NCBI GenBank assembly: GCA_964016885.1
Contig: OZ024740.1
Location: 350,486,001-350,550,000, forward strand
DNA: 64,000 bases
Direction: 5' to 3'
DNA from: Eledone cirrhosa
Lineage: Eukaryota
The notes under the pieces: model-generated
The model's database searches: none
What the model was told of the DNA's origin: nothing
The model's input: only the letters and a program-made list of their open reading frames with translations
Shown: piece by piece, positions 10,185 to 62,889 of the stretch
Numbering within the stretch: the first letter of the stretch is position 1
Layout of the letters: each line of letters starts with the position of its first letter
Made by a program: the position numbers and the translations under genes

Positions 10185-10703
10185 AGAGAAAATTGAGGTT
10201 GGTAATGGCACATGGAATATATAAGAGACAGAATACTTTTTTGTGAAAAAACATATAATTTTATAAGGTAAGGAAATAATAAAGGGTATAAAAAATGACC
10301 GGTTTCGATGGGTCTGCAAAAGCCATCTTTTCAAATGTTGATTAATATTAAGAAAAATTAATAATAAGAAGAGTTAATATTTGAGATTTGAAAATTCAAG
10401 TATAGAATTCATTGTGGGATTTCATAGTAGTTTTCATCTTGTAGCAACTCGTTGAAAACTACTATGAAATCCCACAATGAATTCTATACTTGAATTTTCA
10501 AATCTCAAATTTTAACTCTTCTTATTATTAATTTTTCTTAATATTAATCAACATTTGAAAAGATGGCTTTTGCAGACCCATCGAAACCGGTCATTTTTTA
10601 TACCCTTTATTATTTCCTTACCTTATAAAATTATATGTTTTTTCACAAAAAGTATTCTGTCTCTTATATATTCCATGTGCCATTACCAACCTCAATTTTC
10701 TCT
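10185..10703. repeat. Near-perfect palindrome, ~250 bp arms, 16 nt spacer, between (TA)n tracts
   Basis: 10185-10436 is the reverse complement of 10453-10703 with only about 1-2 differences seen. Confidence 0.96.
10550..10597 (+). ncRNA. Minimal hammerhead ribozyme with U3:A8 core variant (mirror copy on the minus strand at ~10292-10339)
   Basis: aacat-TTGAAAA-gatgg...ccatc-GAAA-ccgg-TC-atttt. Stem III is the ACCGGT palindrome, the cleavage triplet is GUC, and stem I pairs 4/5. Confidence 0.6.
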
Positions 10704-14145: not shown

Positions 14146-17100
14146 CACAGTCAACGCATACATGCATACACAGTCAACGCGATCAGTCGCATATTTTGGC
14201 GTGGGATACTATTTATTAAATTTAAGATGAATACTATCTCCGACAGTAATGCCACAACTACAGTCATGTTGAATAACTGGTTATTCTTTTAACTATATCT
14301 TCTGAAGACACCTTTTATTCGAATTCGTAGAGATATCCGACTAAATACATAATTAATTTTACAAGGATTTGCTACAAACAGCATAGCTGAACACAACATC
14401 AACAACAAAATTAAGGAAGTACCGAAGACAACCAACAAGAAAGGTAAACAAACTTTATTCAGTTGTAGCTACAGAAGAAACCGAAATTATAAATTCTCTT
14501 GGATTTGCGAACTTAATAATGATTTATTTAATTGTTATAAAATGGCAAAAAACAATACCTCCATTGGCTATATGAACAGAATGAAGCTACACTGGGAGGA
14601 AATGCACCCAGAGCTAAATTATTTCACAGCGAAACAATTACGCCGACAAGCGACATTTGTTAAACGTAAAAATAAGATAAATAGTATTAATTGTAAGTCC
14701 CCCACAACAGACATGTTATCAACAACACGTGCTACAGGTCGCCATGCTACTAGACTTCCTAGCAACCAGGTAGAACAGCGTCTTGAAACAACTATGCCTG
14801 TAAGAAACTTGACACCACCTGTACCATCTAAGTCTACCTCGAATGCTGGGGAAAACACTATCGATGATAATAATAATCGAAGAAATAATAATAATAATCG
14901 AAGAAATTTGACACCACGTGTACCATCCGAGTCTACCTCGACTGTTTGGGAAAATACTATCGATAATGATAATAATCAAAAGTATAAACAATTGAAAATT
15001 TCCCCCAACGAAATCTTCCAGAGAGAAATTAATTCATGTATAAATTTCTCTCTTGCTGAACGTATTAAAACGACAATGTTTAATAAAAAACCAAATAATG
15101 AAATATTACGTGTTATTGACGAAATAGGGGATGAATATTTACGACGGATAAAAACCCCAACATTTTGGCAAATCAACGCCTGTTTATATGCCCTAGCAAC
15201 GACAGTGAAGCATTATCTTGGTGATAGCAGAGATATTAACAATAACAAAACACCACCAAAAATACCATCATATATAACTAAAATAGAAAAAAAGACTGCT
15301 GACCTACGAAAAACCATAGGATATGTGACAATGCTCCTTACATGCAAACAAACACAAAAAAACCTCACTCCTCAACAACAAAGAGTGAAAAATAAAATAG
15401 AGACGATGTTTGGTAACAGTAGAACCAGACCTCTTCAATATAAGCTGATCACCCTCAAACAAGAATTGAGAGCTGTTAGCGAAAAACGCCGATATCTGAA
15501 GAAGGTAGATGAAAGAAAAGTGCTTAACAAAAGATTCAGACGAAACCAAACATCAGTCTATAGAGATATGAAGAACAAAATAATAAGTGTCACTGAGGCC
15601 CCATCCCAGAAAGACATAGATTCCTTTTGGAGAAAAATATGGGGTGAAAAGAAGAATATCAACCAAGATGCAGTGTGGCTAAAAGAAATCAGAAAGAACT
15701 ATTGCTCCTACACTACAACAAAAACATACGAAATAAGTGAAGGTACCCTTGAGACTGTGATAGGAAAACTCCAAGATAAGAAAACACCAGGAAGAGACAT
15801 TTTTGTCGGCTACTGGTACAAACCGCTGATATTCTATCGGAGGTATCTTACTGACCTCTACCAACAAGTTCTTAAGGGAGATACACTTATACCAGAATGG
15901 TTGACATTAGCAAAAACATTACTGGTCCCCAAGAACAAAGACACCCACTTCGCAAAAACCTACCGACCCATTGCATGTATAAGATGTATACAGCCTTCCT
16001 GAACCTATTCCTCCAAGATCACTGTGAAAATAATAACATCATCACAGATGAACAAGCAGCTGGAAAGAAAGGGTTTTGGGGATGTGCTGAACAACTCCTA
16101 ATCAACAAAACTGCGATGTCGGAGGTGCGACAACTTAGGAGGAATATGGCTACAGTCTGGCTGGACTACAGGAAAGCTTTCGATTCTGTTCCCCAATCTT
16201 GGATGATAGAGGCCCTCCAGCTTGCTAAAGTCTTGTCATTAAACCCCTTGTCCTTTCTACTGAAGAAATGTGAGGGGTACATCATTGGCTCACAGGAGGA
16301 CAGAAATACGAACCTAACCCATAATTTCTTTGTGGACGATCTGAAACTCTATGCCAAGAATATGGATGGGATGAAGAAAAATCTTGACCTGGTTACAACG
16401 TTCTCAAAGGATATAGTAATGGAGTTTGGCCAAGATAAATGCTCATACATGACTGTAAAGCGGGGGAAAACAACAACCCAATCTAGCAACATTGTCATCA
16501 ATGGCCTAACTGTTTCACCGATATCTGATGAGGACAGCTACAGATACCTGGGGATAGATGAGAACATATCCTATAATGGTATCCGTAATAAAGAACGTGT
16601 AACCAGGGAATACTACACCCGATTAAGAAAGATCTGGTCATCGGAACTCTCTACGCAAAACAAAACAGTGGCTCACAATGTGCCTGTCCTAACACCAACG
16701 TTTGGAATACTCAATTGGACGATAGACGAAATCCGAGCAGTTGATGTTGGAACTCGAAAAATACTAACACAGGAAACTTCCACATCAACAGTGTCATAGA
16801 CCGCCTTTACTTGAAACGTAAGCAGGGAGGCAGAGGCCTAACATCAGTCCAGACAACATTTGAATGTCGCATCATATCTCTCCGACAACATCTACGAACC
16901 TCGAAGCGTAGGAGCCCGTTTCTCGAGCAAGTTTATCTGCATGAAACAGATAAGATCATGAGAGTTGGGAAGGAACTCCTCGAGAGATATTCCCTGTGTG
17001 ATAATCAAAAACTCACACCCAGGGAAGTCGCTCAGCAGTATCGCAGTGAATCCATGGATGAAAAAATGCATGCTTATCAGCAAAAAATCATGCATGGATA

Positions 17101-18110
17101 TGTTGCCAGGGAGCTCCAGAGTGAGAGTAATATAGATAAGGAAAGTAGTCTATCTTGGACCAACAACCGCTATATTGGCTCCCACTTTGAAGGATACGCT
17201 TTTGCAATCCAAGAACAGGAGATTAATACGAAATACCTGATTCACAAAAGAGATAGGGATGCAGGCAAAACACCTAGATGTGATAACAAGTGCAGACTCT
17301 GCAGAACTAACATCGAGGATATCACCCATGTCATCAGCAGCTGTCCAAAGATGTCATCGCGGTACTATCTACCCATGAGGCATGATGTAGTGGCCAAAAC
17401 ACTGTACGATGCAGTTCGTAAAAAAGATAGCCCCGATAATAAACACATTAAAAGCTACAGCAATGTGGAAGACATCCATGTACATAATATGAAAGAGTAC
17501 TGGTGGAATGTTCCAGTAAAAACACCAATAAGATGCAGGCATAACAGACCAGATATTATGATATGGGACAGGGAGAAGAAAGCATGCACAGTAGTGGAAA
17601 TTAGCTGCCCAGCAGATGCCAATATAATATCAAAGATTAGCGAAAAGGAGAATATTTATGCAGAACTAATGAGAAATCTGCAGATACTCCACCCTGATTA
17701 CACCTTCAGATTTATGCCTGTGATTATTGGGTCACTGGGATCTGTTAGTAACTGCCTCAATACAAATCTTGAGAAGCTAGGCTTCACAGGAACAGAAAGA
17801 ACACAAGTAGTTAGGAAATTACAAGTGCAATCCATTAATGGAACAGTAAAAATATGCAAAACATTCCAAAAATGTTGCATCTAATAACTGCATATACACA
17901 TGTGCAGATACAAAGCATATACACATGCACACATACAACTCAAAACATCCACTTCCACACATACAATAACATCCATATCTACACATGCAGACATGCATAC
18001 ATAATCTGCCTAGTTGATGTTGTGTAAATTCCAATGAGAGAGTCTTGTGTCTATGTTAGAAACCGACTCTCTCTATTGGTAAAAATTTGTGAAATTATAA
18101 AACCAGAAGA
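14146..18110 (+). mobile_element. Near-full-length R4/Dong-like RLE LINE flanked by (ACAT)n
   Basis: One original ORF now split into 14542-16002, ~15985-16799 and 16811-17884; the 3' end ...aaaccagaaga runs into acatacatacatac. Confidence 0.9.
14542..17884 (+). pseudogene. RT + CCHC + restriction-like endonuclease polyprotein (two frameshifts, RT deletion)
   Basis: YRPIAC, EQLLIN, WLDYRKAFDSVP, FVDDLKLY, YRYLG, GGRGL, CRLC...HVISSC, RHD, RPDIMIWD...VEISCP...KENIY. Confidence 0.93.
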
Positions 18111-27899: not shown

Positions 27900-28530
27900 G
27901 GTACGAAATAAGAGATAAAGAAAATAATATACCACATGATGAACCGCCTGCGTAGTTCATAAACGGCCATTGGATGACATTAAAGACTCCTTTATTGATC
28001 AATGGGTATCCGTAAAAATAACGAATCTAAAAAGGAAAAAAAAGATTTGAAAACTAAATAGAGGCCATCATCTCTTGTCGATCGAATTTATCAAAGAAAT
28101 GGAAGTTTTTTGTTGTTGATTTTTAGGTCAAATCTAAACTTGAAGTGAGTAAATAGTAACAACAGAGATGACAAAATGACAGCAACTACAAAAGAGACGG
28201 TTATTCCTCTTCCGTTAGAACAATGTTCTTTTTTTCTTTCTTTTTTTGTAAGGAAGTTTCTGTAAAGTACCTAGAACAAACGGTTCTGTGCTACTCTGTG
28301 CATTAGTTTCGCCTCTTCAAATAACAGCAGCAAATTTTATTGAATATTGATGTGGGGGAAAGGATAATGTTGAACCTCTGATAAGCGAATGCAATAAATT
28401 TGCACAGAATGAATATAAACGGGCTATAATGTAGCACGAGCTGTCAAATTAAGAGCAGTGTTAAACATACGAGCTGCAAACGACCGAAAAAGGATGTAAA
28501 AACTGAGGGTGGTGGCATTACACTAATTTC
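27900..28530 (+). mobile_element. Very old R4/Dong-like LINE fragment
   Basis: Residual LISECNKFAQNEYKR...NVAR motif of the CCHC/RLE region at ~28375-28445. Confidence 0.5.
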
Positions 28531-29371
28531 CAATTTAAACGATCTAAGTCACCATCTTACGGAGTGTAATAAATCAGTTATATCTTTAGTCATAAAGAAG
28601 GCAAAACCTTGTAGATTTGACAGGATTGCAATATGTACTGATGTCAGCATTATAAAAATCGCGAGAAACTAGTGTGTGATTTCAACCATATGATTACTCA
28701 GGTACATCGTGTGATATCAATGGGGCGTGGATTATTGAAATGCTCTCTATTTGTTTAGATAAGTAATAAACTTACTGTGCGAATTAAAATACGAGCTGAT
28801 TACTTACTGCTCACTAAACCCAAGAAACTGATTTTATCGGAGTGTCTGAGATATTGAGAACATTATAACCGATCTTAAGTAAATGTCGTCATAAATACAA
28901 CAGGTAATGCATTTTGGTTGTAACAGCTACCATTTCAAGTATAAAATTATAAAGGCTGGATTAGTATGAAACTGGATTAGGGGAGATGTACTATATAAAC
29001 GGCTGAAGTAATCCATGTCAAAATAATTGTTTCATACCTCGATATTAGGGTTAACAGATGTAATGCAGAATTTCATTTTCAAAGATACATTAATTAAAGA
29101 ATTGTGAGAAGTACTCTTAAATTTTGTAGAACTCCTCAGCCTGTTGAGATGAATAATATTGATTCTAGGTAGGAGGTATTAAGTTAACAGATTACTGCTA
29201 CACGAGGCAAGTGAGAGTTATGTGGAAACTCTGGTGGATCGAATCACGGGAGTGAAGATTGGTGCCTATTCCTATGTAGGGAAATATAGACCTCCTCGGT
29301 CAGCTTACAATGCAAGCTTCCATTGTAAGCTGACCGTGTAGGTGTATATTTTGAATATACATCAAATATTG

Positions 29372-29431
29372 TATTTTATCTGATGAAAGCATAGTATAAT
29401 TTAGTATCCCCGAAATATGTATAATAAAATA
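29372..29431 (+). ncRNA. Minimal hammerhead, same family as 1113-1179, stem II decayed
   Basis: tattttat-CTGATGA-...-GAAA-tatgta-TA-ataaaata with identical core and stems I/III; preceded by a fold-back at 29282-29351 and followed by (TA)n at ~29515. Confidence 0.62.
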
Positions 29432-30354
29432 AATATGATGCTATAGTGATATTTTCCATTTATTACTATTGTTAAAATATATATATGCAATCCTTTTGGT
29501 CTTCGTATTTATTATTATATATATATATATATATGTATTTATATATATATAAAATAGATTAGATGAGTTGATAAAACAATCATAAGGGAAAGCGCAAATG
29601 GGATTTTGTAGTCTACAGTAAGACTGGTAAAAAAGAGTTTAGAGTTTAATACAATTAGTAAATTTCCAGTCATGGTAGTTTTACATCACAGAGCATATAT
29701 AAAAATGAATAAAATAAACACGGTTTAATTACATTATTTAATAGATGGACGAACATTGTTTTCAAATACAGAAGTACCGTTTTATTCCTCTGTATTGAAT
29801 TCTTAAGGATCATTAAATAATACATGGTAATTATTTACCAACCGCATATCAGAACATGTCCAAATTCGAAAACGTAAACATCTTAACATATAGTCGGCAA
29901 AACGGCAAAACTAAACTCACAGATTAAAGTTTATTAGTAATAAATATACCGTGTAGTAATTAGTTTGACTCTTAAACCTAATACATGTTTATAGACTCAA
30001 ATAACCATTATAGGAATAAAATTACAACTTATAAATTTAATAATACTTTTAATTAAAGTTTCCACCAATTTTAATACTAAATATATTAAGAAAAACGATA
30101 GAAAAATTATGGAAGCCTAAATTAGTAACAATGCATCAACCAGTAGGATGATTTCTAATTATTAAGAACTATAAGCTGTATTTATAGAGGTGAAAAGGAT
30201 TGTTTATAGGTTATGAGGGTATATTAAGCAAAACACATTCAGCTACATACGTACATATATCAATTCATACAAATATGTAGACTCATATATAAATACATAT
30301 ACACCACCACAGATACCTATAGATATACATATATGTACACACATACACACCTAT

Positions 30355-30396
<42 letters not shown>

Positions 30397-30414
30397 GCAT
30401 TTGAACAAGACCTA

Positions 30415-32494
30415 ATGGATATGATCATGGAGATCAAATTTACAAAACGTAAGAACAATAAACTACAGAATGACATCACGGCACTGCTCAATAATCTAAA
30501 AAACGCCAATGGAATTATTGTTAGAGCAGACAAAACATCAAACGTATATACCATGGATGTGGACACTTACAATAACTTCATCCGTAAGGAATTGCATAAA
30601 AAATACAGGAAAACTAATGAAGCCTCACTTAAAAACATCAACAACTCGGCATGTGATATTGTTAAAAAACTTTGTATTGACGATAGAACGCAACCCTTAA
30701 CACCAGCTATACCATCCTTCAACCTGAAGGACCACAAGGTAAACTTCGATACTAACCCTAATATTAGACTTATATGCCCCTCTAAATCTGATATAGGTAA
30801 AATTAGCAAATATATACTAGACAGAATTATCCCCCAAGTTAAGGTTAAAGTAGAGATTAAACTATGGGGTAACACTCATGAAGCAATAAGATGGTTTAAT
30901 AACATTACTGATAAGAAAAAAATCAAAATTTATTCAGTTTGATATTGATGAATATTATTCCTCAATTTCACCTGATACTCTACATGAAGCTCTTTCGTTC
31001 GCTAAGGATAATTCCGACCTTACGGATGCTGAAATTAAAATTATTATGAAAGCGAGAAAAACTATAGTTAAATTCGATGATAGCTACTGGGTTCGCAAAG
31101 ATAGACCTTCTAATTTTGATATCACTATGGGTTCTAATGATTCGGCGGAAGTAACAGATCTTGTGGGAATTTATATCACCCACAGATTACAAAGAAAATT
31201 CAAGGATCTCCACGGTGGAATTTACCGTGACGATGCGCTCCTATTAGTTAAGCATATGAATAACCAGAATTTAGAAAGGATGCGTAAAAATATCAGAAAG
31301 CTTTTTAAGGAACTAGGATTAAATATTACATTTGAATATAACCTCAAAGAGGTCAATTTCCTTGATGTTACTTTCAATCTCAATACAGATACAATTAAAC
31401 CGTTCCATAAACTAAATGAGAACCTTAAATATGTAAATACGAGTTCTAACCATCCACTCTCTATAATTAAATCCATCCCTAGAAATGTTTCTCTTAGGAT
31501 CTCCCGCCTATCGTCCAACCAACAAACCTTCAAAGAACATACCGAGTATTATGATGATGCACTTAGGAAAGCCGGTCACCTAGATAATATAGAGTATATA
31601 GTCAAAGATCACCAAAACACCCAAAATAAATCACATAGGAGTAAAAATAGCACAGAATCACCACCATACATACACTACCGCAATAGACACAATAATAGTC
31701 GCACACCACCAAACAGAAGGCGATGTAAGGAGTATATCTGGTACAACCCGTTCTATAACAACTCTATTAAAACCAATCTACCCTCAAAATTCTTTCGATT
31801 AGTTAGAAAACACTTTCCAACATCACATAAATATAATAAAATCTTAAACCCTAACACTATTCGACTTTCATATTCAACCGCCCCTAATATTGAACAACAT
31901 ATAAAAAAGCTTAACGCAAAACGGTTGTATAAACGCCTTCCAACACATAACAATACACGTAAAACATTAGCTATAACATCACAAAACAACAAACAACATC
32001 CTGTCCTACATAAGCAACCTCATCAACCCATCCATGGCAATACAACAACGCAAAATTATAATTGCAACTGTGTCCAACCAGGAATGTGTCCGTTGAACAA
32101 TCAGTGTCTTGAACGCAACATCGTATACAAATGTACTATCGAATCGGATAGACAGAAGTGGTACTATGTGGGATCTACAGCCACCTCCTTCAAATCACGC
32201 CTTTATAGACATCGTTATTCGATAAAACATGAAAACCAGCGTTATGTAACAACACTCGCAGACAAGGCTTGGCAGCTGCATGAAAATAACCAACAATTTC
32301 ACCTAAAATGGGATATAATAGTGACTGCCCCCCCATAATCCAATGGACAGGAATTTTGTAAATTATGTAATGTAGAATTATTTTGTATTATGAAATCCAA
32401 AAACATTTTATTAAATAACAGAATAGAGCGATCGTTATACTGTAACCATCGCTTAAAATCTACATTTTCATATTATAAATACTACCAGGATTGA
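30415..32494 (+). pseudogene. PLE reverse transcriptase + GIY-YIG endonuclease
   Basis: ADKTSNVY, QFDIDEYYSSI (frameshift in an A-run at ~30920), MGSNDSAEV, YRDD, FLDVTF, WYNP, CNC...CPL...C, VY...YVG...FKSRL. After an in-frame TAA at 32336-32338 the frame continues as CKLCNVE...LLNNR...CNH. Confidence 0.92.
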
Positions 32495-32967
32495 ACGCCT
32501 GTCTCTATCCCCGTTTGATTGTCAAAATAGATATGAACATTCTTTATTAGCCTTAATTCTATCAACTCTTCTATTATTTACCTTTTAATACAAACTGCTA
32601 TAGATAAAATGAGATTTCTGATTTCTTGATTCAATTCCCTAATGCATATACCAGCTGGCTACTAGCATTGATGTTATTTAGTAGCAATCGAAATCTCCTC
32701 CTTCCCCTATTGACACTTTATAATTAATACTACTGCACCAAATGACCAGCCCTGTCCACTGTCCAGTTGGTCAAGTAGAGATTAAAATTGGCACTCCCAA
32801 AATTCTTATTTAGATTTATTCATGGTATTCTCATTAAAAACCCATTATATACTTGTTTAGCAGTAAATTATTTTACCATCTGTCATATACTATCCCCTCT
32901 GTTCCTTCCTCTTTTACTAATATAAATACTTCAATTTTTCTGATTTTATCCAGTTTATCCAAAATCT

Positions 32968-33076
32968 CTGAAGAAGTGACAACTGATTATACATTTGCTA
33001 TCGAATACTTGCTAACATTATATGATTACGCAAGCAGCGATACATAGGTATTCGGTCTGTTACAGAAACATATGTC
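32968..33076 (+). ncRNA. Hammerhead core in the PLE 3' region (extended stem II)
   Basis: CTGAAGA-a-gtgaca...tgttac-a-GAAA-catatg-TC; ACATATGT palindrome; stem I is poor. Confidence 0.55.
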
Positions 33077-33307
33077 AATACCTAATAAATTCCTTTTTTA
33101 ACAAAAGCACTTTCATTTTATATTCATCCTTTCTATATATATATATATATATATATATAGATTTTGAGTTTATGTTGGTTGTATACCAACACCTCAGTAT
33201 GCAGGCTGGAGCACTCGACGAAGTGCGCAGGTTGGTTTGGTTACTCCGGAGTAGTGTAACATAAAGTTAAATAAAAGTCAAATGATTAAAATTTAGCTTC
33301 GTTTATT

Positions 33308-33362
33308 ACTGCTATATATATTTCAGTGACAGCCATCTTTGGCTGTGACCTCTTCAGGCAGT
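33308..33362 (-). ncRNA. Mirror copy of the intact hammerhead
   Basis: Exact reverse complement of 33464-33518. Confidence 0.85.
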
Positions 33363-33463
33363 TTGAATTAGTATGGTATAGACAAGTACATATGTTATTT
33401 AGGTGTATGACAATATCATACACCTAAATAACATATGTACTTGTCTATACCATACTAATTCAA

Positions 33464-33518
33464 ACTGCCTGAAGAGGTCACAGCCAAAGATGGCTGTCAC
33501 TGAAATATATATAGCAGT
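33464..33518 (+). ncRNA. Intact minimal type-I hammerhead ribozyme
   Basis: actgc-CTGAAGA-ggtcacagcc-aaagat-ggctgtcact-GAAA-tatata-TA-gcagt, then AATAAA. Stem I 5/5, stem II 9/10; predicted cut after 33513. Confidence 0.85.
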
Positions 33519-33562
33519 AATAAACGAAGCTAAATTTTAATCATTTGACTTTTATTTAACTT

Positions 33563-33614
<52 letters not shown>

Positions 33615-33760
33615 CATGGAAATGGCTTCATTTCTCCCGAATTAAACAGTTCTAGTCCTGTAGAAGCCATTTCTATATTAAATATTTATACTCTGCTATG
33701 TATTGAGTACCTTACTTACTGTGGTTATCCCGGATTGAACCCGGGATAAACGTATGTATA

Positions 33761-33819
<59 letters not shown>

Positions 33820-33959
33820 AGATATATCACAACAGGCATGTATATAAACATACCAACATACACATACTTATGCATACATACGCAAACACACACAAACATA
33901 CCAAGCAATTTCGTCCAGACAAGAGGCTACGTGAAAAAGGTGATAACGAGATAGAGGAA

Positions 33960-34085
33960 GATTCGACCCTAGGAGTGGAAAGGATGAATGGCAACTTTGA
34001 TTACGGCGGGATTTGATCTCAGAGCAAAGTGAACAGGAACAAATGCCGAGTAACATAGTCCTATGCCCTAATATATTTGCCAATT
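33960..34085 (-). mobile_element. Diverged SINE
   Basis: ggatgaatggcaac...ggcgggatttgatctcag. Confidence 0.6.
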
Positions 34086-34587
34086 ATGCTTCGACTTAAT
34101 ATTAGCAGAATATATACAAATTCTCAATTGGAGCTGAAATATAGCTATATTGGTTGATATTAAATAGGACATTGCAACTGAGAGGGACAAATTGTTGAAA
34201 TGAGTGGTCAAATGTACTCTTGTTTGACCATCCCACTTTTGTCCAGAAAATATATATTGAAATACCATTGTTTTAAGAGAGATCAGATTGCTATTTTTAT
34301 CAGATAAAATGACTATATAGCTGATCCCTTCCTGGCTCGAGTACCTGCATGCCTGTGTGTGAGTACCCGGTTTACTATAGGTAAATGGCATCCCAGCATT
34401 TCGTAAGAAACGAATAAAACATTTGATGAGAGAAAGGGCATCCAGCTATAAAACGCTACCTAAAGAAATTCCCATCCAAGTGATGACAGCATGAAAAAGT
34501 GGGCGTAAAACAAATGAGATATATATCGTCGTTTTTACATCCAATGCATGCATGTATACATACATGCACACACATATATACATACAT

Positions 34588-34621
<34 letters not shown>

Positions 34622-34686
34622 GTGTGTGTATACATATGTATACATGCATTCGTGCATACATACATATATTTATTCCACACAAATGC

Positions 34687-34815
<129 letters not shown>

Positions 34816-35635
34816 TGCGTGTGCACTTATCTTTCTTTGCATGATTGAATTCTCTGCTGTAAAGTCATTTTAATCAATTTTATGAATCAATTTTGGTTTG
34901 TTTCTTTTTTAAATTGTCTTTGTTTTGTTTTGCAAAAAGTTTATTTGGAACACGCGAACAAATAATAACGATGCTATTTCATGCTATTACTGACCTGTAA
35001 TCTTTTTATTGGCATTAGTGGTGTTTCGATTCGGCGTAGTTGTTGCTGTTGTTGTTGATGCTGTTGTTGCTGATGCTGTTGTTGCTACTCTTGTTACTGT
35101 CGATGTTAACATCTTCCAAAAGTTCATGTTTTAAAATACCTTCCTTTTCTCACTCAATCTAATTTTGAAGAAATTTAAAACCGGTTTTTGTTTTGGTTTT
35201 TGTTTTCTTTTAAATTATGTTATACAACTATACTGCACAATACAATTATACCATCCATTTCTCCGATTATTGAACGATATTATCATTTTATTATATTTTC
35301 TGTATTCATAACTTTTTTCTTTATGTCAGTCTCTGTCTGCCTGTCTATCCGTTGAAAGATTATTAAATTTATACATGATTTAAACGAATGGCACCAATAC
35401 TTGCATAATTTGTGTATAATGCAAATAAAAAGACAGTTGTTTTCTCTATTTTTCAATTATTATATTATATATCTTCTTTCGAAATATGTAATATTTCTTT
35501 CACGTAAAAGTATTTTGCATTTTATGAATATGAAAACCAATAAAATCGTTTAATATTTCGAAAATATTAACAATCACAAGGTGATATTGAAACCATATTA
35601 CTTTAGCTTCTCATTCTCTCCCTTATCTCCTCTAC

Positions 35636-35691
<56 letters not shown>

Positions 35692-35816
35692 TGCCACTGT
35701 TCCTTTTATTTGAATGCCTGTAACTCTGTACCACATATTGTTTATGTGTCTGTGTCTATCTCTCTTGTATATATGCGTTAGTTTGTATATCACTGTCTTT
35801 CTGACTCTATCTGTCT

Positions 35817-35819
<3 letters not shown>

Positions 35820-35886
<67 letters not shown>

Positions 35887-36010
35887 CCTATTTCTCTCTC
35901 TATATATATATAGGGAGGGAGTAAGAAAGAGAGAGAAAGAGAGAGAGAGAAAGAGAGAAAGAGAGAAAGAGAGAGAGAGAAAGAAAGAGAAAGAGAGAGA
36001 AAAAGAGAGG
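35820..36010. repeat. (CT)n-(TA)n-(GA)n compound tract
   Basis: Direct read. Confidence 0.93.
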
Positions 36011-38115
36011 GATCGTTAGTTCTGATTCGTCGAAAAAAATGTAAAAAACTGAGTGGTTCTTATCTTATCGATTGTTAAAAACAATTTTTTACCGTTTAGT
36101 CACGGGTGGAAAGGCAGTGTCCTTTACATTGCTGCAGAACTTGCAAAACTGGTAGGTGAGAGGGTGTCGAATATTTTCAAATAAGAGACAACCGATGGCT
36201 AACAACAGAACAGACTCCGCTTAAGGACCCCAAGAGCCAAGTGGTAATATTAAACAAGACGATGGATTATGACTACTATATAAATAGGCTACAGCCAGAT
36301 AAGAACACAAACAATGGAAATAACACCACAAGGTATCTTGCCCGTCACTCAAACAATTTCCTTTGTCTACCATCACGAACTGGTAGATTATTTTCTAGGC
36401 CCCTATAGTTGACCGCAGTAAAACTTGAACCCAAAGCATATGTGGTTCTTTTTTTATGGATCTCTCAAAGGGTGGAAATAAATTTGACCGAAATCCACAT
36501 TAAAAAAAACAAAACAGAATTGGAACAAAATATACGACTTATGGAACAACATACTGTGATACAGTTACTTGCTGTTATTGTTGTTATTCAACCACAGGTT
36601 AGGCTTAATGCAAGAGATATAAGTTAAGGCATCCAACCCTTGTTCATTCAGTCTTTTTGTTTACTTCCACAAACAGAATGCAATTTTAGGGAAATTCTGC
36701 TTATGTTTGTTATAGACTGTTTACTGGATTCCCTCATTGGCTTGTAGAAAATATATGCAATATATTGTTGACTGGGTTGAAGTTCACGGGGCGTAGGGCT
36801 GGAGAAGGCTACCATATCAGTCACCACACTTTCTTCGAAACATACTATTTCTACAATCAGAACAATAACCACGACGACGACGATAACAAATACAACGGGA
36901 ACATTAGCAATCACAACCATTACAGCCACAACTACGACTACCACCACCGCAAGAACGCCTTTAACTCATTGATTGATCAATTTTAGATATTGACATTTTA
37001 TATTTCAATTCCAGAACATTTATTTTGTTTATTTGCATATGTATGCTATTACTGATTTTTTTCTATTGATTTTTAATTGACCAGTTACTAGTAATATTTA
37101 TTCAGAATTCATAAAGCACAATTAAAAGTAAGATACAAATAAGAAAAGAACAAAACACTATGCCCTCTGTCGGTCAGCATATCACTTCTCTATCCTACGG
37201 AGATGGCATAAGCGTTGCTACTACGAACAAACAGCCAGTGATATCAACTATGGAGTGCCATTCCAACTCATGGAGCTTCTTTCTCAAGCGCGATGCCATC
37301 ATCTCGATTTGTAAGGAAAACAGAAGTCTGGAGGCCGAGGACATCAGTGGTCTCAACAGCAATTGGCTTACAATTTAATCAGTTTGTAGATGCTTGGTAT
37401 TTAGTCATCTTTTTCTCAGCGTTGCGGGCGGCAGAAGTCAGGTTTAAAGTCGAAGCGTTAACATTCGGGATAGAATAAGTATGACATTTAACATCCCAGA
37501 AAAGGGATTATTTTGTCCGGATGTCTACTATCAACGTGATCATGTTCAACAGGCTTTAGTTGTAACGGGAAACTGAGAGCATCGAGACAACGTTTTATGA
37601 TAACATTCTGAACACCTCAGCTATGGAAACATCTTGTATGTTGATGTGTAGAAAGTGGATGTGGTTCAAACTGGTTGTCAGTAGATCGACAGTAGCATCT
37701 GCGTCTCTCACACGCATGGAAGCACTCACCGTTTTGAAGGCTTACAGTTTTACAACCATGTTTTGTTTTCTCGTTTGTTCAGTGCTTCCCTGTTCTTTTG
37801 TGTTTTTTGTTTAACTACACCACGCGCAATCACCTCACCTCCAATTTTTCTAATTTGAATTCTTCCACAACAACGAATATTTCTGAATGTATTATTCAGT
37901 GACGAGAATTTTATTTGAGAAGTTCAGTAATTCTGCAGCGTCTTTGACAAACATTGCTTTAAGAATCTGTCTGTTAATGACAGATTCTGTTTCATTAAAT
38001 ATCATCAAGACTTTAATTACGAAAAAACATCGTGACTGTTGTCAGGCACCACAATGAAACATATTATGATATAATAATGACGTTGTTGATGATTTTTACG
38101 GTGATACTGATTATA

Positions 38116-38841: not shown

Positions 38842-38851
38842 AATATATATT

Positions 38852-39126
38852 TTTATTAAAATAACATTAAAGTTTAAGCAAAAATCGCTTAACGGGATCT
38901 TCTCCATTAATGAGAAGATCCCGTTAAGGGTGAAACCAGCGATTCTTTGCTTAAATTTTAATCTGTTATTTTAATAAATATTTGCTCTACGGTTTTATAT
39001 ATATTTATATATATATATTACCCTTATAGAGCCCTTTTAGTCTTCACATTTATTATTATTACCAGAAGATCCCGTTAACAGTGGAAACAGCGATTCTTTG
39101 CTTAAACTTTAATCTGTTATTTTAAT
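38852..39126. repeat. Palindrome (38852-38978) plus a tandem third copy (39063-39126) of a short repeat, among (TA)n
   Basis: cttaacgggatcttctc-cattaat-gagaagatcccgttaag; the unit aagatcccgttaa...gaaa..agcgattctttgcttaaa also occurs at ~5985-6030. Confidence 0.85.
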
Positions 39127-39261: not shown

Positions 39262-39849
39262 GAATAGTGTGTGGGAAGAGAGTTCCGAGGGTGTGTAGGG
39301 GAGTGGGGGAGAGACATTTAGAAAGGGGGGGAAGGAGGAAAAACGGTGGAAGGGGTACAAATAAAAATAAATATAAAAAAAATAAATATAAAAAAAATAT
39401 ATATATATATTGCCCAAACTGTTGATAATATACAAAGCAATCAGACACAGTAAAGAGAAATATACAATGAAAAAAATATATATAGAGAAAAAAATAACCT
39501 CGAACTTCAATTGACCTGTAATACTGAATCTATTTATACATTACTTAAGCTATTTCCCAGATATTAACTGTTAATGTGAGGATAGTAATTATTTGCCATC
39601 TGTCACTCTGACCAATCTCATTCATCGTTTCTATCTCTATATTATTCATTATGTTCATCTCTGTGTTTCGCCTGCCCCCCCCCCCTCTCATCTTCTCTCT
39701 TTCTCTCCCATCTCTCTTACTCTCCCTCTTCTTGTCTCTGATCCTAATCCGTTCCCGGTTGCTTATGACACAGATGATGTGTTTTCCATTGAGTCTGATT
39801 GAACATGAGTTTGAAGCTGCATTGTCTTGTATAGTCCTGTTGTATATGG

Positions 39850-39877
39850 AAAGCCGAGCGATGGTATAAAGGGCGCC

Positions 39878-39923
<46 letters not shown>

Positions 39924-39951
39924 GGCGCCCTTTATATCATCGTTCGGCTTT
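39850..39951. repeat. 31 bp inverted repeat centred on (TA)n
   Basis: aaagccgagcgatggtataaagggcgcccca-(TA)n-tggggcgccctttatatcatcgttcggcttt. Confidence 0.93.
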
Positions 39952-40789
39952 ATATATATATATATGTTGTTTTTTTGTTGTTGTAGATAAATCACACCAC
40001 CTGATTTAATACTACCACCTGGTCGGTCAACGCCTTTCGAGTAGTTTACTCTGATGCAAATATTTGTAGGAGGCTATTGTAGGGAGCTATTGTTATTATG
40101 ATATTATAGCGTACCAATACCCTCTACCATAACCCTAGATGACTCTCCATCAATAATACTAAACTTGCTGAAACGTTCTTTATGTTTCTTTTTTTAATTT
40201 TCTTATATCTACACCTAACACATTTCGTACTAACTCACAAACTACACTCCATACTCCACCCAAAGACACATATCTCTTACACTTTATACCCAAACTTCAC
40301 TTTAAAATGTAATATCTGTGTATATATAAATTCCATTCTGACCGCAATTAGCTTTTCACTCTTTACTTTTGCTCAAATCTCCTTTTGCTCATATTCCGTC
40401 CTTCAGACGGAATATGTTTGAATATATGCCATATAGCTTTCAATGGCATATATCAGTGAAAAATATAGAACGGTGCTTTCGACCTATGTATAGAGCCTGA
40501 CATAACTTTGAAAACATATTTAAAGTAACAACAACTACAAAAGTGAAAACAAAATCCATTTAAATATCTTCAGTAAATAAAAAACATCAAACCTGATCAA
40601 CTTTCACTATTTACAATCTAGACAGTTTTAAATGTCATTGTGATGAGAGAAATATCCTTTTAACGATCAGATGTTAATAAACAACATATTTATGCGGTCC
40701 TTGACATCATATATTTCTAATATTTGTGGAATTTGCTGTATTTGTCTGTAGATATGCACGCTCTGCTTAATTTACTGTGACTATCATTG

Positions 40790-53209: not shown

Positions 53210-56200
53210 CTACCAACAACAACAATGATAACAACAACACCACCAACAACAACAGCAACACGAACAACTCCACGAACAAGGAAAATATTTCTTTTGCTCA
53301 AACCGTCCAAAAGAGGGAACTGTTCACATACCTTGACATTTCCAATGCTAGGGAAATGTTAAGCGATGCAAAACAGTACGTAACTTTTGGTGAGAGTGGT
53401 GCTTTCAGCATCACTTCTCCTCAACAGTTACGCAGATAAACTGTTCTAAAAACAGTAATTTTTAGCACGGTTTCAAATGTGTCGAAAAAACCAGTTCAGT
53501 TATCCCAAAACGATATTGAACTGGTTCTGAAGAATTCCATGAAGGATATTGCCTTCATCCAAAAAGGAAAACTTTTTGGAAGCATTTCGGTGTTGTTGAA
53601 AGACCAATTGACAGCACAAAAATATTCTGTATCGCCGATTGTGTCCCCCCATTACACCCTTTTCCCCATATATATGGGAAAAAGAACTCAAAAAATAAAA
53701 ATTTTGAACATTGCACCAAATGTAAACGTCTGGTGGATTCTAACGGGCTTCATCGATTTCGACGAAGAAACCATCATTTCGGTGGGAAAGTCCTCCAGAA
53801 TCACATTCAATGGTACAAGCATGGAAGTTCTGGTCCAAATGAGGCCATAACGGATAGCTAAAATACCCCAACGTGAGCCTCTGGATGGAATTTCACACAT
53901 AAACATTTCTGTTGAGGGTAGGCGGCCTTCATGTTACCACTGTTTAAGCAGTGGTCACCTGGGCTTACTGTCCTCAGTTAACTAACAAAAAAAAAGAGGC
54001 ACTACTGCCAACACCCAAAACAACAACACAACCACCACCACCACCACAACAACAACAGCAAAACGCAAACAACCAAAACAAGAACAACAAACCAACCGGC
54101 AAGCACAGTCCCACCCAACCCCACTCCACCTAAAACGACTGCAAAAACACCCACAAACACAACAGCTCCCCAAAACATACCCCTTCCAAATAACACAGAC
54201 ACCACGACGGACGAGGCCCCCACATCATCACCAAGTGGTGATGAGGGAGAGCCTCTCCGTTTGAAAAAGAAGAAAAGGCACCACAAGAACAAAAACACAA
54301 CAAACATCACTACAAACATACAACCACCAACACAAACAACACAAACATTACAAACAAAAAAACCCCGTCCCGAAAACAAAACCACGACATCACTCCAAAC
54401 ACAAACACCTACAACAAAACGAAAGCGCCCACAAGAATAACAGACAAAAACCACCGCAACGCAACAAGAACATTACACATACATAAACAGTAAAAACAAA
54501 ACTTTAATAGAGGTCATCTCCAACGACCCTTCGGTTTTCACCGAAGGGAAAACTTTTTCGAACTGTGTAGACAAACCTAATTTAAAGATGATTAGGGTCC
54601 CTACGGACACCTATAAGTCTTTAAAGGAAAACTTTCCTAAGGACGTGGGTAATCCTTGTGTTAAACCCATTAACCGCGTCCTTTTAAAAAGATTCCCCAC
54701 CCTCACCCCAGACACACCCACCCCAGACACGCCCACCCCACCAAACATCTCTGTCCCCACCCCGCCGGAAACCACCACCCACCCAGACAACTCCTCTAAC
54801 ACCCCCATGGAAACCGTGCGGCCTGATCCCCGGGAGACGAAGAGGTGAGTGTTTTCTTCTCCTCTTTTAACTTTTCAGAACCAACATAGTCAATATAAGA
54901 GTTGGGTGTGTGAATGTACGCGGCCTAGAAACAGGGCAGTATGGATGTAGTAGCCATTTGCGAGTTCAGTATCCACAGCGAGCGACAGCTGGCCCCCATC
55001 TTCGATGACTTTGAGATCTACGCATCTCTCTGTCAGCCGGGGGGCGGGGGCGGGGTTGCCGTTTTGCTGCGGAAACACCTGGGCCTCGTAACGCAGACGG
55101 TACATCTGGACCCAGAGGGTCGACTGGTGGTCCTAGACGTTGACGGTATTGAAGGTGCAGCCTTCAGGCTGGTGGCCGCATATGCCCCATCCGGGACACC
55201 GCGGCCAGACTTCTTCAAACGTCTAGAGACTTTTCTGGGAACGTCCCGCTCCATGCTTTTAGTGGGGGACTGGAATGGAATCCTAAATGCACGTTGTGAC
55301 TATGTAGGAGCACGTCCCGATAAGGGGGGGGGGTGTAACATCCTCAAACAGTTAATCGGCCGATTTGACCTGGCCGATAGATATCAACTACATTTTCCGA
55401 CTGTGCCACTGTGGACGTGGACTAATCGCAGCGGAACATCTAGATCTTACCTAGATAGGGTTCTAGTTAGAAATAAGGATAGGGACATGTTAAGCTGTCC
55501 ACAAATGTTCATGGTTGCCTATTCAGATCACAAACTAGTGACCTGCATGGTCAACCTTGATAGAAACGATAGACAAGGACCCGGCTACTGGAAGCTGAAC
55601 TTGTTGTTACCGACATGCAAAGTCTACAGTAGACGGATTAGCACTTTAGTTAAACAAGCACTTGACTGGGGCCATTGTCAACAACAGATGGTGGTACTTT
55701 CTCAAGAGGGCAGTTAGATTAGACTCGTTAGTTTTTAGTAAAGAATTAGCGTTAGATAGAAATAGAACCGAGAAAGAACTGGTAGATAAAGTAGAAGAGG
55801 CAATTAGAAGTGGCAACGTAGCCAGCGTGCTAGCAACGAGAACGGCCTTGGACCAGTTCTTCGACGCAAAGCATGAGGGCTGCGTTGTCAGAAGCAAAAT
55901 AAGTGCTCTGGGATACGAGGGAGCCAAAGCTTTTAGCTGGGACCGAGTGATGGAGGCAAAAAGTGGCAACAAGTCCACGATTCGGTCTTTGAAGGACCAA
56001 AACGGACGCGTGATACGTGAGCCGAAGCAGATGTGTGCGGCCTTTCAGCGGCACTTTGCTCAGCTGTTCGGGCAGGGCAGCGCGCCGGGAGGGGCTATGG
56101 ATTTCGGTCCATATCTCGACGGCCTACCGCGACTCTCCGACAGCGAGGCAAGGTTCTGCGAAAAGCCGATTTCAGCCGCTGAGATAGGGGACGCGTTGAG

Positions 56201-57800
56201 CCAATGCGGCAAACGCAAATCTCCAAGTTTCGACGGTCTACCCTACGAATTTTACGTAGCAATGCCGGACTTATTCTCCGGTCTCCTGGAAGCGGTCTAC
56301 TGCAACTGGCAACAGAACGGGAGAATTCCCAATTCTGTGACCGGGGGCGTAGTCACACTAGTCAGGAAGGCGAGAATAAGGGGGATGACATAGCCAACTT
56401 CCGGCCCATAACTCTGCTAAACACAGAGTTACAGATTTTGGCCAAGGTGTAGGCAAAGAGGCTGGCGCCTGTCGTCGAGAACCTGGTGCGAGAAGCGCAG
56501 ACATGCGCAATCCTGACCAGGTTCATACACGACAACCTCCACCTCATGCGATACATCACAGAGAGGGTAGGGTGTAAACCCGGCTTCGGTGGGGCCCTGA
56601 TCAACTTGGATCAGTCTAAGGCTTTCGATATGGTTGACCATCGTTACCTGGATGCGGTGCTCGAGGCGGCATGCATTGGACCCGTGTTCAGGGGCTGGAT
56701 TGCTGCAATGCATAACAGCAACATCTGCTCAGGGGTTAAGGTGAACGGCTACCTCTCGGAGCCGTTCCATATCACGCGATCCAATTCGACAGGGATGCAC
56801 TCTCTCCTCCCTTCTGTACGTATTGACTCTCGAGCCACTACTGCGGAAGTTGGAGCTATTTCAGAGCATCCCTCTGGAACCGGGACTGCGGAAAGCGGCG
56901 TCGGCCTACGCCGACGACGTTACAGTAATGGTGTCGAGCGCCTCGCAAATCGAGGAAGTCGGTACCTTACCGAAGGAATACGAAAGGTTCACAGGAGCGA
57001 AGCTGAACCGGGACAAGTCCATCGGTTTGCAACTCGGATCATGGAGAAGCAAACCAATAACTTCCGATGGCGTCGTCGGACGCTGGACGGAAGGACCAGT
57101 AAAGCTGCTGGGGGTCTGGTTTGGTCCGGACCTCCAGGTGAAGAAGAACTGGAACGGCCAAGGTGTTTGCACTCACCCAGAAGTGGGCCGAGTGCAAACT
57201 ATCCTTGAAAGGTCGAGCGGAGGTGGCGAACACTTTTATAGCGTCCGCCATCTACTACCGCTTGACCGTCGTGCCTTGTCCAGCCAAAACGCTCGCCAAA
57301 ATAGAGCGCGCGCTCTTCCAATTCCTTTGGAAGAGGCGGGCTCCTTTGGTGAGAAGATCCATCTGCTGCCAACGTTCTTCCAACGGAGGGCTGGGGATGC
57401 CGTGGCTGACGATGCGCAAACACACGCTCAGGCTGCGGCATCTCTACCTTTTCCTCACCGGACAACCGGTGTGGGTCTCGTTCGTGAGGCGAGCCTTCCC
57501 ACGACTCGTGTCGCTGACCGAGCTGCAGTTCTGGGTCAAGCAAAGACCGAGGAAAATGGGCGACTGGCACATTGAATGTGCTCAGGCGCTCACAGCCCTC
57601 TGGCAGGCGGACCTGGCGATCAGTGGAGACTCCACTTCGTCATTCTATAGAGGGTTGATCTGCAGCAAGTGCGACGACGTGCTCGGTGAAACTCTAGGCG
57701 TAGAGGAAGACGAACGGGCCAGTCTGTTCGGTAGGACCTTCCGCCCGGGACCGATGGACAACTTCCAAAGGTTCCTGGCCTGGCAGTGCTACCGAGGAGA
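53210..57800 (+). mobile_element. Tx1/L1-clade LINE, 3'-truncated, frameshifted
   Basis: ORF1 remnant with a zinc knuckle (EGRRPSCYHCLSSGHL...CP at ~53915-53975). ORF2 has APE motifs (GGGVAVL, AYAP, GDWN, YLDRV, SDH, PGYWKLN) and RT motifs (DGLPYEFY, FRPITLLN, DQSKAFD, YADD, KLLGVWF, GGLGMP). Confidence 0.92.
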
Positions 57801-57801
57801 T

Positions 57802-58350
57802 CTCTCAGCTCGAGCCGGCGGGGCTGCACCGAGGGGACGGCAAAAGGCCAGATGGCATGACCATCTTCCCGTTTCGCGGAGGTAAACATCTCATCTGGGA
57901 TGCCACATGAAATGACGAATTCTCCAGCGGCAACCTGGTGCAGTCTGCGGCTAACCCAGGCTCTGCTACGCTTCGAGCTGAGGAGGGTAAACTCTACAAA
58001 TATCGGTCGCTTTCCTACAGGTTTGCGGTCGAGCCCGTAGTAGTAGGGCTTTTTGGTGTCCTTGGTCCTAGGACCACCTTCCTACTTACCACCATCAGCA
58101 CAGAGTTGGCTCCTCGCAGGTGTGAACCTCGTGAGCTGGAATGGTTCTTCCAAAACGTCTCCCTCACCATCCTCCGGGGAAACGCCTTCCCTATTCTGTC
58201 CGCCGGGGCCGAGGGGCGGCCAGCTCGTGGGGCCCCATTTTATCACAATAGTGAGAGATGGAGAGAGCAGGAAAGACGGAGGCAGTGACAGTGGGAGTTT
58301 GGTTCCACTGTGTTCGGATCTGGTGTACATGTATATATTTATTTACCACA
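57802..58350 (+). mobile_element. CRE-clade LINE 3' fragment (RLE domain plus 3' UTR)
   Basis: [35 protein letters not shown]...AEEGKLYKY...FGVLGP...WFFQNVSLTILRGNA. Confidence 0.85.
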
Positions 58351-59089: not shown

Positions 59090-59500
59090 AATGGTTTCTT
59101 ATATAGGCACAAGGCCAGCAATTTTGAGGAGGGGAAAATCGATTAAATCGACTCAGTGCGTGACTGCTACTTTATTTTATCGACCCCGTAAGGATGAAAG
59201 GCAAAGTTAGCCTCGGCGGGATTTGAACTCAGGCCGTAAAGGGCCGTAACGCTATGCTTCGAAGCATGGTGTTTGACGCTCTACCGATACTGCCAATCCA
59301 CCACCCTTATGACGGGATAATAATGATATTATCCCGTCATAAGGGACGCCATGTTTTGTAGCATAGAGTTATGGCCTTTGTCATTCTGAGTTCAAATCCC
59401 GCCGAGGTTAACTTTGCCTTTATTCCTTACGGGGTCGATAAAATAAAGTACCAGTAATGCACTGAGTAATTGCTGGCCTTGTGCCAAAAGTAGAAGCAAT
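59090..59500. mobile_element. Two divergently oriented SINEs separated by a 19 bp-arm hairpin
   Basis: Minus copy 59090-59306; hairpin 59304-59345; 5'-truncated plus copy ~59344-59500. Confidence 0.88.
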
Positions 59501-60147: not shown

Positions 60148-60748
60148 CTAGTTGAGGATTTTCTCTCTCCCATCATGTATTTGCTGTGCAATTTCGCTCG
60201 TGTTAATGATGTGGGGTTGCATATCCTTGATGTACTTCGGCATGCTGTCTATTGACATCCTACCAGACTTATTCGTGGATAGACATACTACCTCACCATC
60301 CCTTGTGCGCTGCTTGAGGCTAACCAAGCCTTCTACAGGTTTCCTCCCAAGTTGTTGGACCTCTGGTCTGCTCTGTCTCTTAGTATACCGGTCTACTATA
60401 TGTCTAATCTTATTTCTAGCTATGGTGAACTGTGCCTCTGTCTCGTAATCTATTTGTTGTGGTATGCAAACCCTTTTATTAAAGGGTAACCTCGTAGGAT
60501 AGATATTACCCATCTTATATGTTTTGTCAGCTGGGTTGAAGAATAATTTCTCTAAGGGGTTGTCATTATATCTATCGTCATAGTTGTGTGTGTTGCTATT
60601 ATTGTTATTATGGTGGTTGTTGTTGTTCCTATCATTAGCATTATTATTATTGTTATGATTGCTAGATGTATTGTTGCTGTGATTGTTAGATGTATTGTTG
60701 TTGTTTTCTCCACCGTTATTGTTGTTGTTACTGTTATTTCTACCATTG
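60148..60748 (-). mobile_element. Inverted upstream fragment of a PLE ORF
   Basis: GLVSLKQRTRDGEVVCLSTNKSGRMS...YIKDMQPH resembles the pre-RT DKS/DKG motif; it abuts the plus-strand PLE body. Confidence 0.6.
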
Positions 60749-62455
60749 TGAACTCAAAGATCTCCTTGATGAGAGCTCCATAGACCTCATCATGTACTCT
60801 CGTTACGTAGACGACATCAATATAGTAATAAGGACATCCCCACAAGAGAGCACTAACAAGTTTGATTTAGAACGTAGCACAATGGAAAGCATCCAGCAGA
60901 TAGCTAATTCCATACACCAGATTATAACTGTAACTATCGACTACCCTTCCAAACACCCTAACAATAGACTACCTGTATTAGACACGGAACTCTGGATTAA
61001 CACTATAGACGAGAGAGCCCAAATTCTCCACTCACACTATGCTAAACCCATGGCCTCCAAATACCTGATACTAAAAAACTCAGCAATGTCCAGTAGTGCT
61101 AAGTTTAGTATTCTGATCGCAGACTTGGTACGAGTGATGAAGAATGTGTCCCGCATGTGCGACCCAACAGAAATGGAAAGACACATCCAACACTTCATCA
61201 ACCGCATGCAGTTCTCTGGCTACAACCAAAGAGACAGAATCAGAGTATACGAAGGAGCCACGAAGAAGTATAAGACCCTCATAGAACTGGACATGAAAGG
61301 AATTTGCCCATTATACAGGAGCAAATGATAGAATAGCTTAGATAGGACTAGACATAAGATAGGGAGAGCCATCTCATGGTACGACAACCAGAGATACCAG
61401 AGTGTCATATTTGTGGACGCTACCCCAGGAGGGAAATTAGCTAACCAGTGTAGAAAGGCCCTGAGAAAGACCCACTTAAAGATTAAGGTGGTAGAAAAGC
61501 CAGGAACCACCATAAAATCCCTGATCAGCAAAACCTACCCTTTTAAGAAAACCCACTGTACTAATAGGAAATGTATCATATGTAAAGTAAACCCCCGGAT
61601 AAACTGTAAAACTAGAAACGTAGTCTATAGCATAAGATGTACAGAGGGTACTTGCAGAAACATGACAACAACATACATAGGCGAGACAGTTCGTAGTATA
61701 TGTGAAAGGATAGACCAACACTGAGGGGAACTAAAAGGACGAAAAAACGGTTCAGTACTATAAGAACATACCAGACAACAACACAACAGTAACATAGACA
61801 ACATAGAAATTAGAATAATATCTAAACATAGAAATGACCCAGCAGATAGGCAAATCAGAGAGGCTAGCCAAATAGAACTTAGAAGGCAAGGCTAAACAGA
61901 AAAAATGAATGGAATAACAATAACACCCAAACAAACAACACTGACCTAAGAGAAGTATAAATAAATAAATAAATAAATACATACACAAGCACAATAACAA
62001 CAAACATATATAAACACACACTAGTAAACTAAGATAGAATACAATAACCAATATACAGTCACCCAAACACGAACACACATCAAACAAAACACTATACACA
62101 AACGCAAACGCATGCGCAGAGAAGACAAAAACATAAACAAATAAATAAATAAATAAATAAATAAACAGACTAAATAAAGATGGCGTAGGCATACAATGCA
62201 ACGGGAGGAAACATAATAGCACCACTGACGATGTTGCAGATGTGCAACGAAAGAAGTTTGTTAGACTATATATGTGTTTGTGTCTATATTGTATCTGTAT
62301 TCTTGACCGTTGGTCAGTCAATGGTAACATTGAGGACCGAATAAATTAAATTAACCGATATAAAGGACACAGAAGCGAAAACCAACCAAAGAGTGAGTGT
62401 GTTCTGATATTAATTCTGGCAATATTATTACACAAATATGACCCTCCCCAAGTAT

Positions 62456-62460: not shown

Positions 62461-62501
<41 letters not shown>

Positions 62502-62528
62502 GTTTGTAGTTGTAAGGCCAAAACAATG

Positions 62529-62889
62529 CAGGTATGGATATAGAATATAAATGCAAATGCAAAATATATTGTTGACAATTAGTCTTTTACCTTAAATTTA
62601 TTTAAATATCCTCAATTTTTGAGATAATATCTCTTCTTCGGAGGGAAGTAAAGTGGTTAATCCAGTATTCTAATTAGCTTGCCAAGTTATGCTGACAGGA
62701 AATAGTATCATACCATTTCCTGTCAGCATGACTTGGCAAGCTAATTAGAATACTGGATTAACCACTTTACTTCCCTCCGAAGAAGAGATATTATCTCAAA
62801 AATTAAGGATATTTAAATAAATTTAAGGTAAAAGACTAATTGTCAACAATATCTTTTGCATTTGCATTTATATTCTATATCCATACCTG
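62529..62889. repeat. Near-perfect palindrome, 175 bp arms, between (TA)n tracts
   Basis: 62529-62703 versus 62715-62889 with about 3 mismatches. Confidence 0.95.

Follow-up and report, generated by a model that had tools for sequence, protein, structure and literature searches.

The perfect palindrome at 33261–33565 of the window, the 64-kb stretch of Eledone cirrhosa DNA analyzed here, is very probably the mark of a recent, single, heavily 5ʹ-truncated insertion of an abundant endonuclease-bearing PLE family into (TA)n. The 3ʹ pseudo-LTR of the element would have been copied twice, once with its optional tail and once without, and the two copies joined head to head. We therefore regard the palindrome as most likely a clean, young example of a published PLE insertion by-product, and not a new class of ribozyme element.

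The palindrome lies within a longer insert between two TA tracts

The two arms pair at all 150 of their 150 positions and enclose a loop of 5 nt. No ORF of ≥100 amino acids was found in the palindromic unit, where the sole ATG-started frames are of 16 and 22 codons, and BLASTN of the arm found no further copy elsewhere in the 64-kb window. A sequence-only reading of this DNA had described perfect 150-bp arms, a 5-nt loop, the absence of an ORF, and a (TA)n tract adjoining the right end, all of which we confirmed; it had also called the copy young, which is how it looks. The extent that it gave, 33261..33565, is correct for the palindrome but too narrow for the insert, which also takes in 33160–33260. 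The insert runs from 33160 to 33565, is flanked by (TA)n at either end, and carries its tail on a single side (Table 1). Any target-site duplication would be concealed by the TA repeats.

Family members were examined in contigs from four public sequencing runs (X1, X4, X5, and X6), representing four samples from two studies under three organism codes. The tail was covered at high summed depth in all four runs (33176–33260), with 33160–33175 skipped in the contig coverage because it adjoins repeat. In X1, the summed contig depth was 287–359k over the tail and 722–724k over the outer arm, these being sums and not copy numbers. Contigs leave the arm at 33275, and among the 24 of 194 loose-end rows listed, 17 X1 contigs run into TA at this point, representing tail-less ends. 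One X6 contig matches 33177–33286 with 1 difference in 110 and crosses the border between tail and arm, its 26 letters on the arm side falling short of the 31-letter bridging standard. As the tail is present on the left side only, the unit is not strand-symmetric, contrary to the earlier description.

Table 1. Coordinates of the insert, its parts, its upstream neighbor, and the two sister palindromes in the window
Feature	Position	Strand	Description
Second palindrome	10185–10703		252-nt arms, 1 substitution and 1 indel, 16-nt loop
Hydra-like PLE copy, separate	30397..33133	+	5ʹ-truncated; frameshift near 30900; stop 32336–32338
(TA)13 tract	33134..33159		Left boundary; presumed target, from sequence
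One-sided 101-nt tail of inverted copy	33160..33260	-	Family sequence, not host DNA
Left arm	33261..33410	-	Inverted 5ʹ-truncated copy of PLE end
AATAAA	33307–33302	-	Directly 3ʹ of left-arm hammerhead
Minimal type-I hammerhead, left arm	33308..33362	-	Mirror of + motif; predicted cut after 33313 on -
Inversion junction	33408..33415	+	TGA 33408–33410 common to both copies; 5-nt loop
Right arm	33416..33565	+	Direct copy of PLE end, without tail
Minimal type-I hammerhead, right arm	33464..33518	+	Predicted cut after 33513
AATAAA	33519..33524	+	Directly 3ʹ of right-arm hammerhead
(TA)24 tract	33566..33613		Right boundary; presumed target, from sequence
Third palindrome	62529–62889		175-nt arms, 3 substitutions, 11-nt loop

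The arm belongs to a family that continues past the palindrome center

Contigs of all four runs carry the arm past the center into non-palindromic upstream sequence. Among the 24 of 194 loose-end rows listed, such ends were seen behind 33406–33410 in X1 (5 + 10 contigs), X4 (2 + 1 + 1), and X6 (1), and before 33408 in X1 (13 contigs), X5 (5), and X6 (2). The earlier suggestion of a non-autonomous, self-contained retrozyme-like unit is not supported, as the arm continues into a longer element in four of four runs and the layout is not a same-strand tandem repeat. The sequence-only reading had itself named a contrary case, in which other copies would prove to be ordinary 3ʹ ends of coding PLEs with random inversion points, and this case is borne out in part, by the upstream continuation found in every run.

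The contigs of the arm family are from <90 to >99% alike. A single variant letter at 33364 is carried by at least 74 X1 contigs; the family thus comprises many divergent copies. Inward of 33372, the X1 summed depth falls from 724k to 202k (again sums, not copy number). An exact-pattern scan of viral and metagenome contigs with a 21–23 nt piece of the hammerhead gave 0 matches in either set.

The contig letters at the junction were then read by eye. The direct and the inverted copy share the TGA at 33408–33410, giving a microhomology of 3 nt, and the plus strand from 33408 onward, loop included, is ordinary family sequence. Arm, loop, and tail are all of family origin. At the junction, one X4 contig is an exact fit to the window, and others differ from it by one to a few letters past the TGA; the letters preceding the TGA largely agree between contigs. 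Because the letters vary past the TGA but agree before it, the small hairpin at the center is not a fixed family feature. No contig piece spanning the window's own center was present among the 32 of 3007 pieces listed, and X4 had no cover at 33421–33450, a hole that proves nothing. None of the five joint rows (0/5) falls at the center, where a contig sharing the window's center would lie straight.

The upstream letters, of which ≤30 are visible, give 7–8 open codons ending in the TGA at 33408–33410, and in a second sequence variant the position of the TGA is unchanged. It is possible that this TGA is the stop of the parent ORF, and, judging from those ≤30 letters, the arm may comprise the parent's stop codon and all that follows it. 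The upstream letters may resemble the ends of Neptune-type proteins. The PLE nuclease alignment in the supplement of PMC8557442 ends at a conserved N.

Each arm carries an outward-facing minimal hammerhead

Both arms have the character of a PLE pseudo-LTR with a minimal hammerhead, as had been proposed from the sequence. In the plus-strand motif, stem I pairs 33464–33468 with 33514–33518 (5 bp), the core occupies 33469–33475, stem II 33476–33501, and GAAA 33502–33505. Stem III is an 8-nt palindrome, A-TATATA-T, and the cleavage triplet is AUA. The core of the minus-strand motif is at 33357. Helix II of the arm hammerhead has 7+3 bp; the pair closing stem II is G-U, and a C-C mismatch lies within this stem. 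These departures from an ideal hammerhead stem II are common to both arms and so were already present in the template. The outward type-I motif followed by AATAAA in each arm is thus as described earlier, though to call the hammerhead "intact" was slightly generous given the G-U closing pair and the C-C mismatch. The arm motif also differs from the canonical type-I hammerhead, with its 6-bp helix I, 4-bp helix II, and loop contacts.

When the hammerhead motif was folded in isolation, stems I and II formed the minimum-energy structure (z −2.3, with 5 of 200 shuffles equally good). A hammerhead descriptor matched 0 of 20,000 dinucleotide-shuffled arms; over the whole window it matched at three places, two of which are these arms. 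No Rfam hammerhead family was present among the 100 matches listed for region 28000–38000 at E up to 10. The microRNA models of Rfam matched the hairpin below threshold only, an effect of the perfect stem.

Read-through RNA is predicted to bury the ribozyme

RNA folding was then predicted for transcripts of the palindrome. At six transcript lengths where the hairpin could form, read-through RNA gave a probability of 0.9995 for the long hairpin and ≤1e-12 for hammerhead stem II, and the predicted energy of the 150-bp hairpin RNA was about −290 kcal/mol. Read-through RNA would therefore form a 150-bp hairpin with the ribozyme and the poly(A) signal buried, since the antisense arm is made first from either side. 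The 150-bp dsRNA hairpin suggested by the sequence-only reading is thus predicted by folding; the competition that it envisaged between this hairpin and self-cleavage is not, with the antisense arm made first and stem II at so low a probability.

RNA starting at 33408 was predicted to form stem II with a probability of 0.999 and stem I with 0.67. Only RNA starting near the center would expose the hammerhead, and a partner or protein would be needed for the cut. When two hammerhead units were co-folded, the intermolecular structure predicted was not that of the active dimer. As the two hammerheads lie on opposite strands, there can be no cis dimer, and any cleavage as a dimer would have to occur in trans. 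Minimal PLE hammerheads are reported to have no activity as monomers and low activity as dimers (PMC4209133), and the hammerhead of PAc needed its protein (PMC11167929). By folding prediction and by analogy with these systems, the palindromic copy would most likely be inert.

Head-to-head hammerhead palindromes recur in the window

At least two more head-to-head hammerhead palindromes are present in the window, with sequences unrelated to the arms (Table 1). The one at 10185–10703, from an unrelated family, has the U3-A8 variant of the hammerhead core in each arm, a tail of 35 nt on one side (region to 10737), and microsatellites on both sides. In the palindrome at 62529–62889, degenerate hammerhead cores are followed by AATAAA, and short unique stretches flank it on both sides before microsatellites are reached (62499–62915). 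There is also a decayed inverted pair at 38849–38981 with a direct copy downstream (region to 39135), and a 70-bp palindrome at 29282–29351 immediately precedes a hammerhead motif that is similar to one at 1121 (region to 29440). Five of the eight perfect stems of ≥14 bp listed have a hammerhead or hammerhead-like motif within or beside them, two with a full core in both arms; the remaining three, at 39865, 42655, and 59304, are without a hammerhead. The presence of at least three such hairpins in 64 kb suggests a genome densely supplied with potential sources of long dsRNA in the form of PLE scars.

Proposed origin of the palindrome

We propose that the element's nuclease would nick both strands of the TA tract, and that reverse transcription, primed by each end of the tract, would start at one or the other of two internal sites, yielding a tailed and a tail-less copy. 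The outer site would give tail and arm on the top strand, and the inner site arm, loop, and TCA on the bottom strand. Both cDNAs would stop after about 150–250 nt, and their complementary 3ʹ ends, TGA and TCA, would be joined by annealing or after one cDNA had snapped back. The hammerheads and AATAAA signals would be passengers of the pseudo-LTR. A PLE protein acting on AT-rich DNA has been shown to cut and extend both strands, and it starts reverse transcription at two internal sites, one on either side of the tail (PMC11167929). For inverted ends, PMC3846280 favors self-priming on an antisense template, and the step by which PLEs make such ends is left undefined in the relevant passages of PMC8557442 and PMC11167929. 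DNA folding did not favor a stable snap-back at the three junctions (z −0.64 here; 0.75 and 0.10 at the sister palindromes), so the joining step is not decided by folding. The same layout in the unrelated sequences at 10185–10703 and 62529–62889 counts for the insertion, and the 101-nt tail, about three times the published 30–40 bp, counts against it.

The 406-nt unit of tail and palindrome could instead be a non-autonomous element, copied whole by the PLE enzyme, with a fixed center at the parent's presumed stop codon. Such copying would agree with the stem II departures shared by both arms, which were present in the template, and many short copies would fit the drop in X1 depth inward of 33372; PLE pseudo-LTRs are also described as yielding non-autonomous derivatives (10.64898/2026.07.22.740005). 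Variable 5ʹ truncation, or divergence, would account for the drop equally well, however, and contigs of all four runs pass through the center, with variable letters at the would-be hairpin. The perfect 150-bp hairpin RNA would moreover be a poor template, at the energy predicted above, and would bury the neighbors of the tail-side signals. Finally, unrelated families share the layout with loops of different length (5, 11, and 16 nt), as expected of a generic by-product, and we consider copying of the whole unit decidedly unlikely.

Perfect identity of the arms, and the absence of the center from the 32 pieces listed, are also what an assembly or library fold-back artifact would give. This is very unlikely here, as the inversion ends at the family's tail-less 3ʹ end and is followed by (TA)n without duplication of flanking host DNA, the two sides differ by the family tail, and the sister palindromes carry 2–3 differences between arms, unlike a read fold-back. 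Conversion can keep the arms of a palindrome perfect, and a single PLE end might have been made palindromic after insertion, through hairpin-capped break repair or intramolecular conversion. Two back-to-back insertions would have a similar outcome, and PLEs do insert into or beside earlier copies (PMC6765202). Yet a 3-nt overlap at matching family positions together with 150 nt of identity would hardly come from independent events in a family of such varied contigs, and the layout recurs in unrelated families, making either of these histories extremely unlikely.

Relation to known PLE and hammerhead systems

The single 5ʹ-truncated insertion that we favor can be set against published elements. 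The typical structure of Penelope has inverted pseudo-LTRs arranged head to head, a palindromic junction, and, optionally, a tail (PMC3846280), and an inverted 5ʹ-truncated copy, a one-sided tail of 30–40 bp, and a bias for (TA)n are found in all endonuclease-bearing PLE clades (PMC8557442). Pen2 and Pen3 of Adineta vaga (PMC3846280; scheme in PMC8557442 fig. 2) share with the insert their head-to-head pseudo-LTRs, a palindromic junction with a short overlap, a tail at one end only, a (TA)n target, and a hammerhead in the pseudo-LTR. The palindrome described here differs from them in being without any ORF remnant and in its tail of ~101 nt, rather than 30–40. The published 30–40 bp is typical and not defining, and the sister palindrome at 10185–10703 has a tail of 35 nt, compared with 101 nt here.

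The arm motif resembles the minimal hammerheads of metazoan PLEs, which are type I with a short helix I (5 bp in the arm), a long helix II, and a palindromic stem III (PMC4209133). The same paper describes [quoted passage not shown], and the two arm motifs, ~110 bp apart on opposite strands, are within the 100–700 bp that it reports for Schistosoma. The G10.1-C11.1 pair is highly conserved in minimal hammerheads (PMC4209133), whereas the arm motif has G-U at this position and a C-C mismatch in helix II. Non-LTR retrozymes (PMC7229834; 10.64898/2026.07.22.740005) are likewise short and non-coding, with a type-I hammerhead and kinship to PLE pseudo-LTRs. They are, however, same-strand head-to-tail repeats from which the hammerheads cut out a monomer, whereas the palindrome has one motif per strand, and no RNA carries two in the sense orientation.

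PAc, the Anolis Poseidon system studied in vitro (PMC11167929), cuts and extends both DNA strands, and its two internal start sites for reverse transcription would explain tailed and tail-less ends. An ATG in stem II precedes the cut site by 24 nt here and by 26 in PAc; the frame that it opens in the palindrome closes after 16 codons. With its junction resolved to the base, showing a 3-nt microhomology at the presumed stop and an unusually long one-sided tail, the palindrome is suited to tests of how PLE inverted ends are formed.

Our literature search found neither a palindromic non-autonomous PLE family nor PLE twin priming. A fixed-center palindromic non-autonomous PLE family, improbable as we hold it to be, would be new. 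In its fullest form, inversion would preferentially take place where a small hairpin spans the parent's stop codon, with onward copying of the whole tail-plus-palindrome unit. This would make a high-copy, hairpin-forming non-autonomous element, with its ribozyme off in read-through RNA and on only in center-initiated RNA, that would supply ADAR or Dicer with many perfect dsRNA substrates, a scenario to which we assign a low probability.

A separate Hydra-like PLE and other elements of the window

The Hydra-like PLE at 30397–33133 lies between its own (TA)n tracts. Its frames have 92 homologues, about 27–44% identical, one of them named from sea cucumber, and it carries DKT, CxC-x5-C, CxxC, and CxH, the Hydra-clade motifs of PMC8557442. 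Pfam gave no match in two frames of this copy, and its identity is based on the homologues and these motifs. The sequence-only reading had placed a "coding PLE" upstream of the palindrome; a PLE it is, but coding-derived, being 5ʹ-truncated and frameshifted with an in-frame stop. We considered the arms as the pseudo-LTR of this neighbor and rejected this, as BLASTN (word 7, E up to 0.01) gave no match. By its sequence, the Hydra-like PLE is a separate insertion and not the source of the arms. Its X1 summed depth was 5–30k over the body and 112–121k at the 3ʹ end (not copy numbers).

At 32968–33090, the end of the Hydra-like PLE has an odd hammerhead-like motif with a full core and a palindromic stem III. 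Its stem II is 90 nt long, and there is no stem I strand 5ʹ of the core; 8 nt within stem II (33045–33052) are complementary to 33077–33084, just past the cut site. The motif is outside the permutations given in the pertinent part of PMC10085705.

A broken PLE at 60148–62260 has RT and GIY-YIG remnants on the plus strand (60748–61920); its upstream part, which is PLE-like, lies on the other strand, and at 62225 a hammerhead-like core is present. Single minimal hammerheads with a palindromic stem III were seen at 2618–2665, 39259 (minus strand), and 63150 (minus strand), and an inverted pair of ~45 nt without a hammerhead surrounds a TA tract at 39843–39958. Two broken LINE-type elements (RVT_1, Exo_endo_phos) lie at 14353–17884 and 54929–57885. 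A dispersed repeat of ~180 nt, SINE-like by appearance only, has at least nine copies across 8062–59506, including an inverted pair at 59151–59467.
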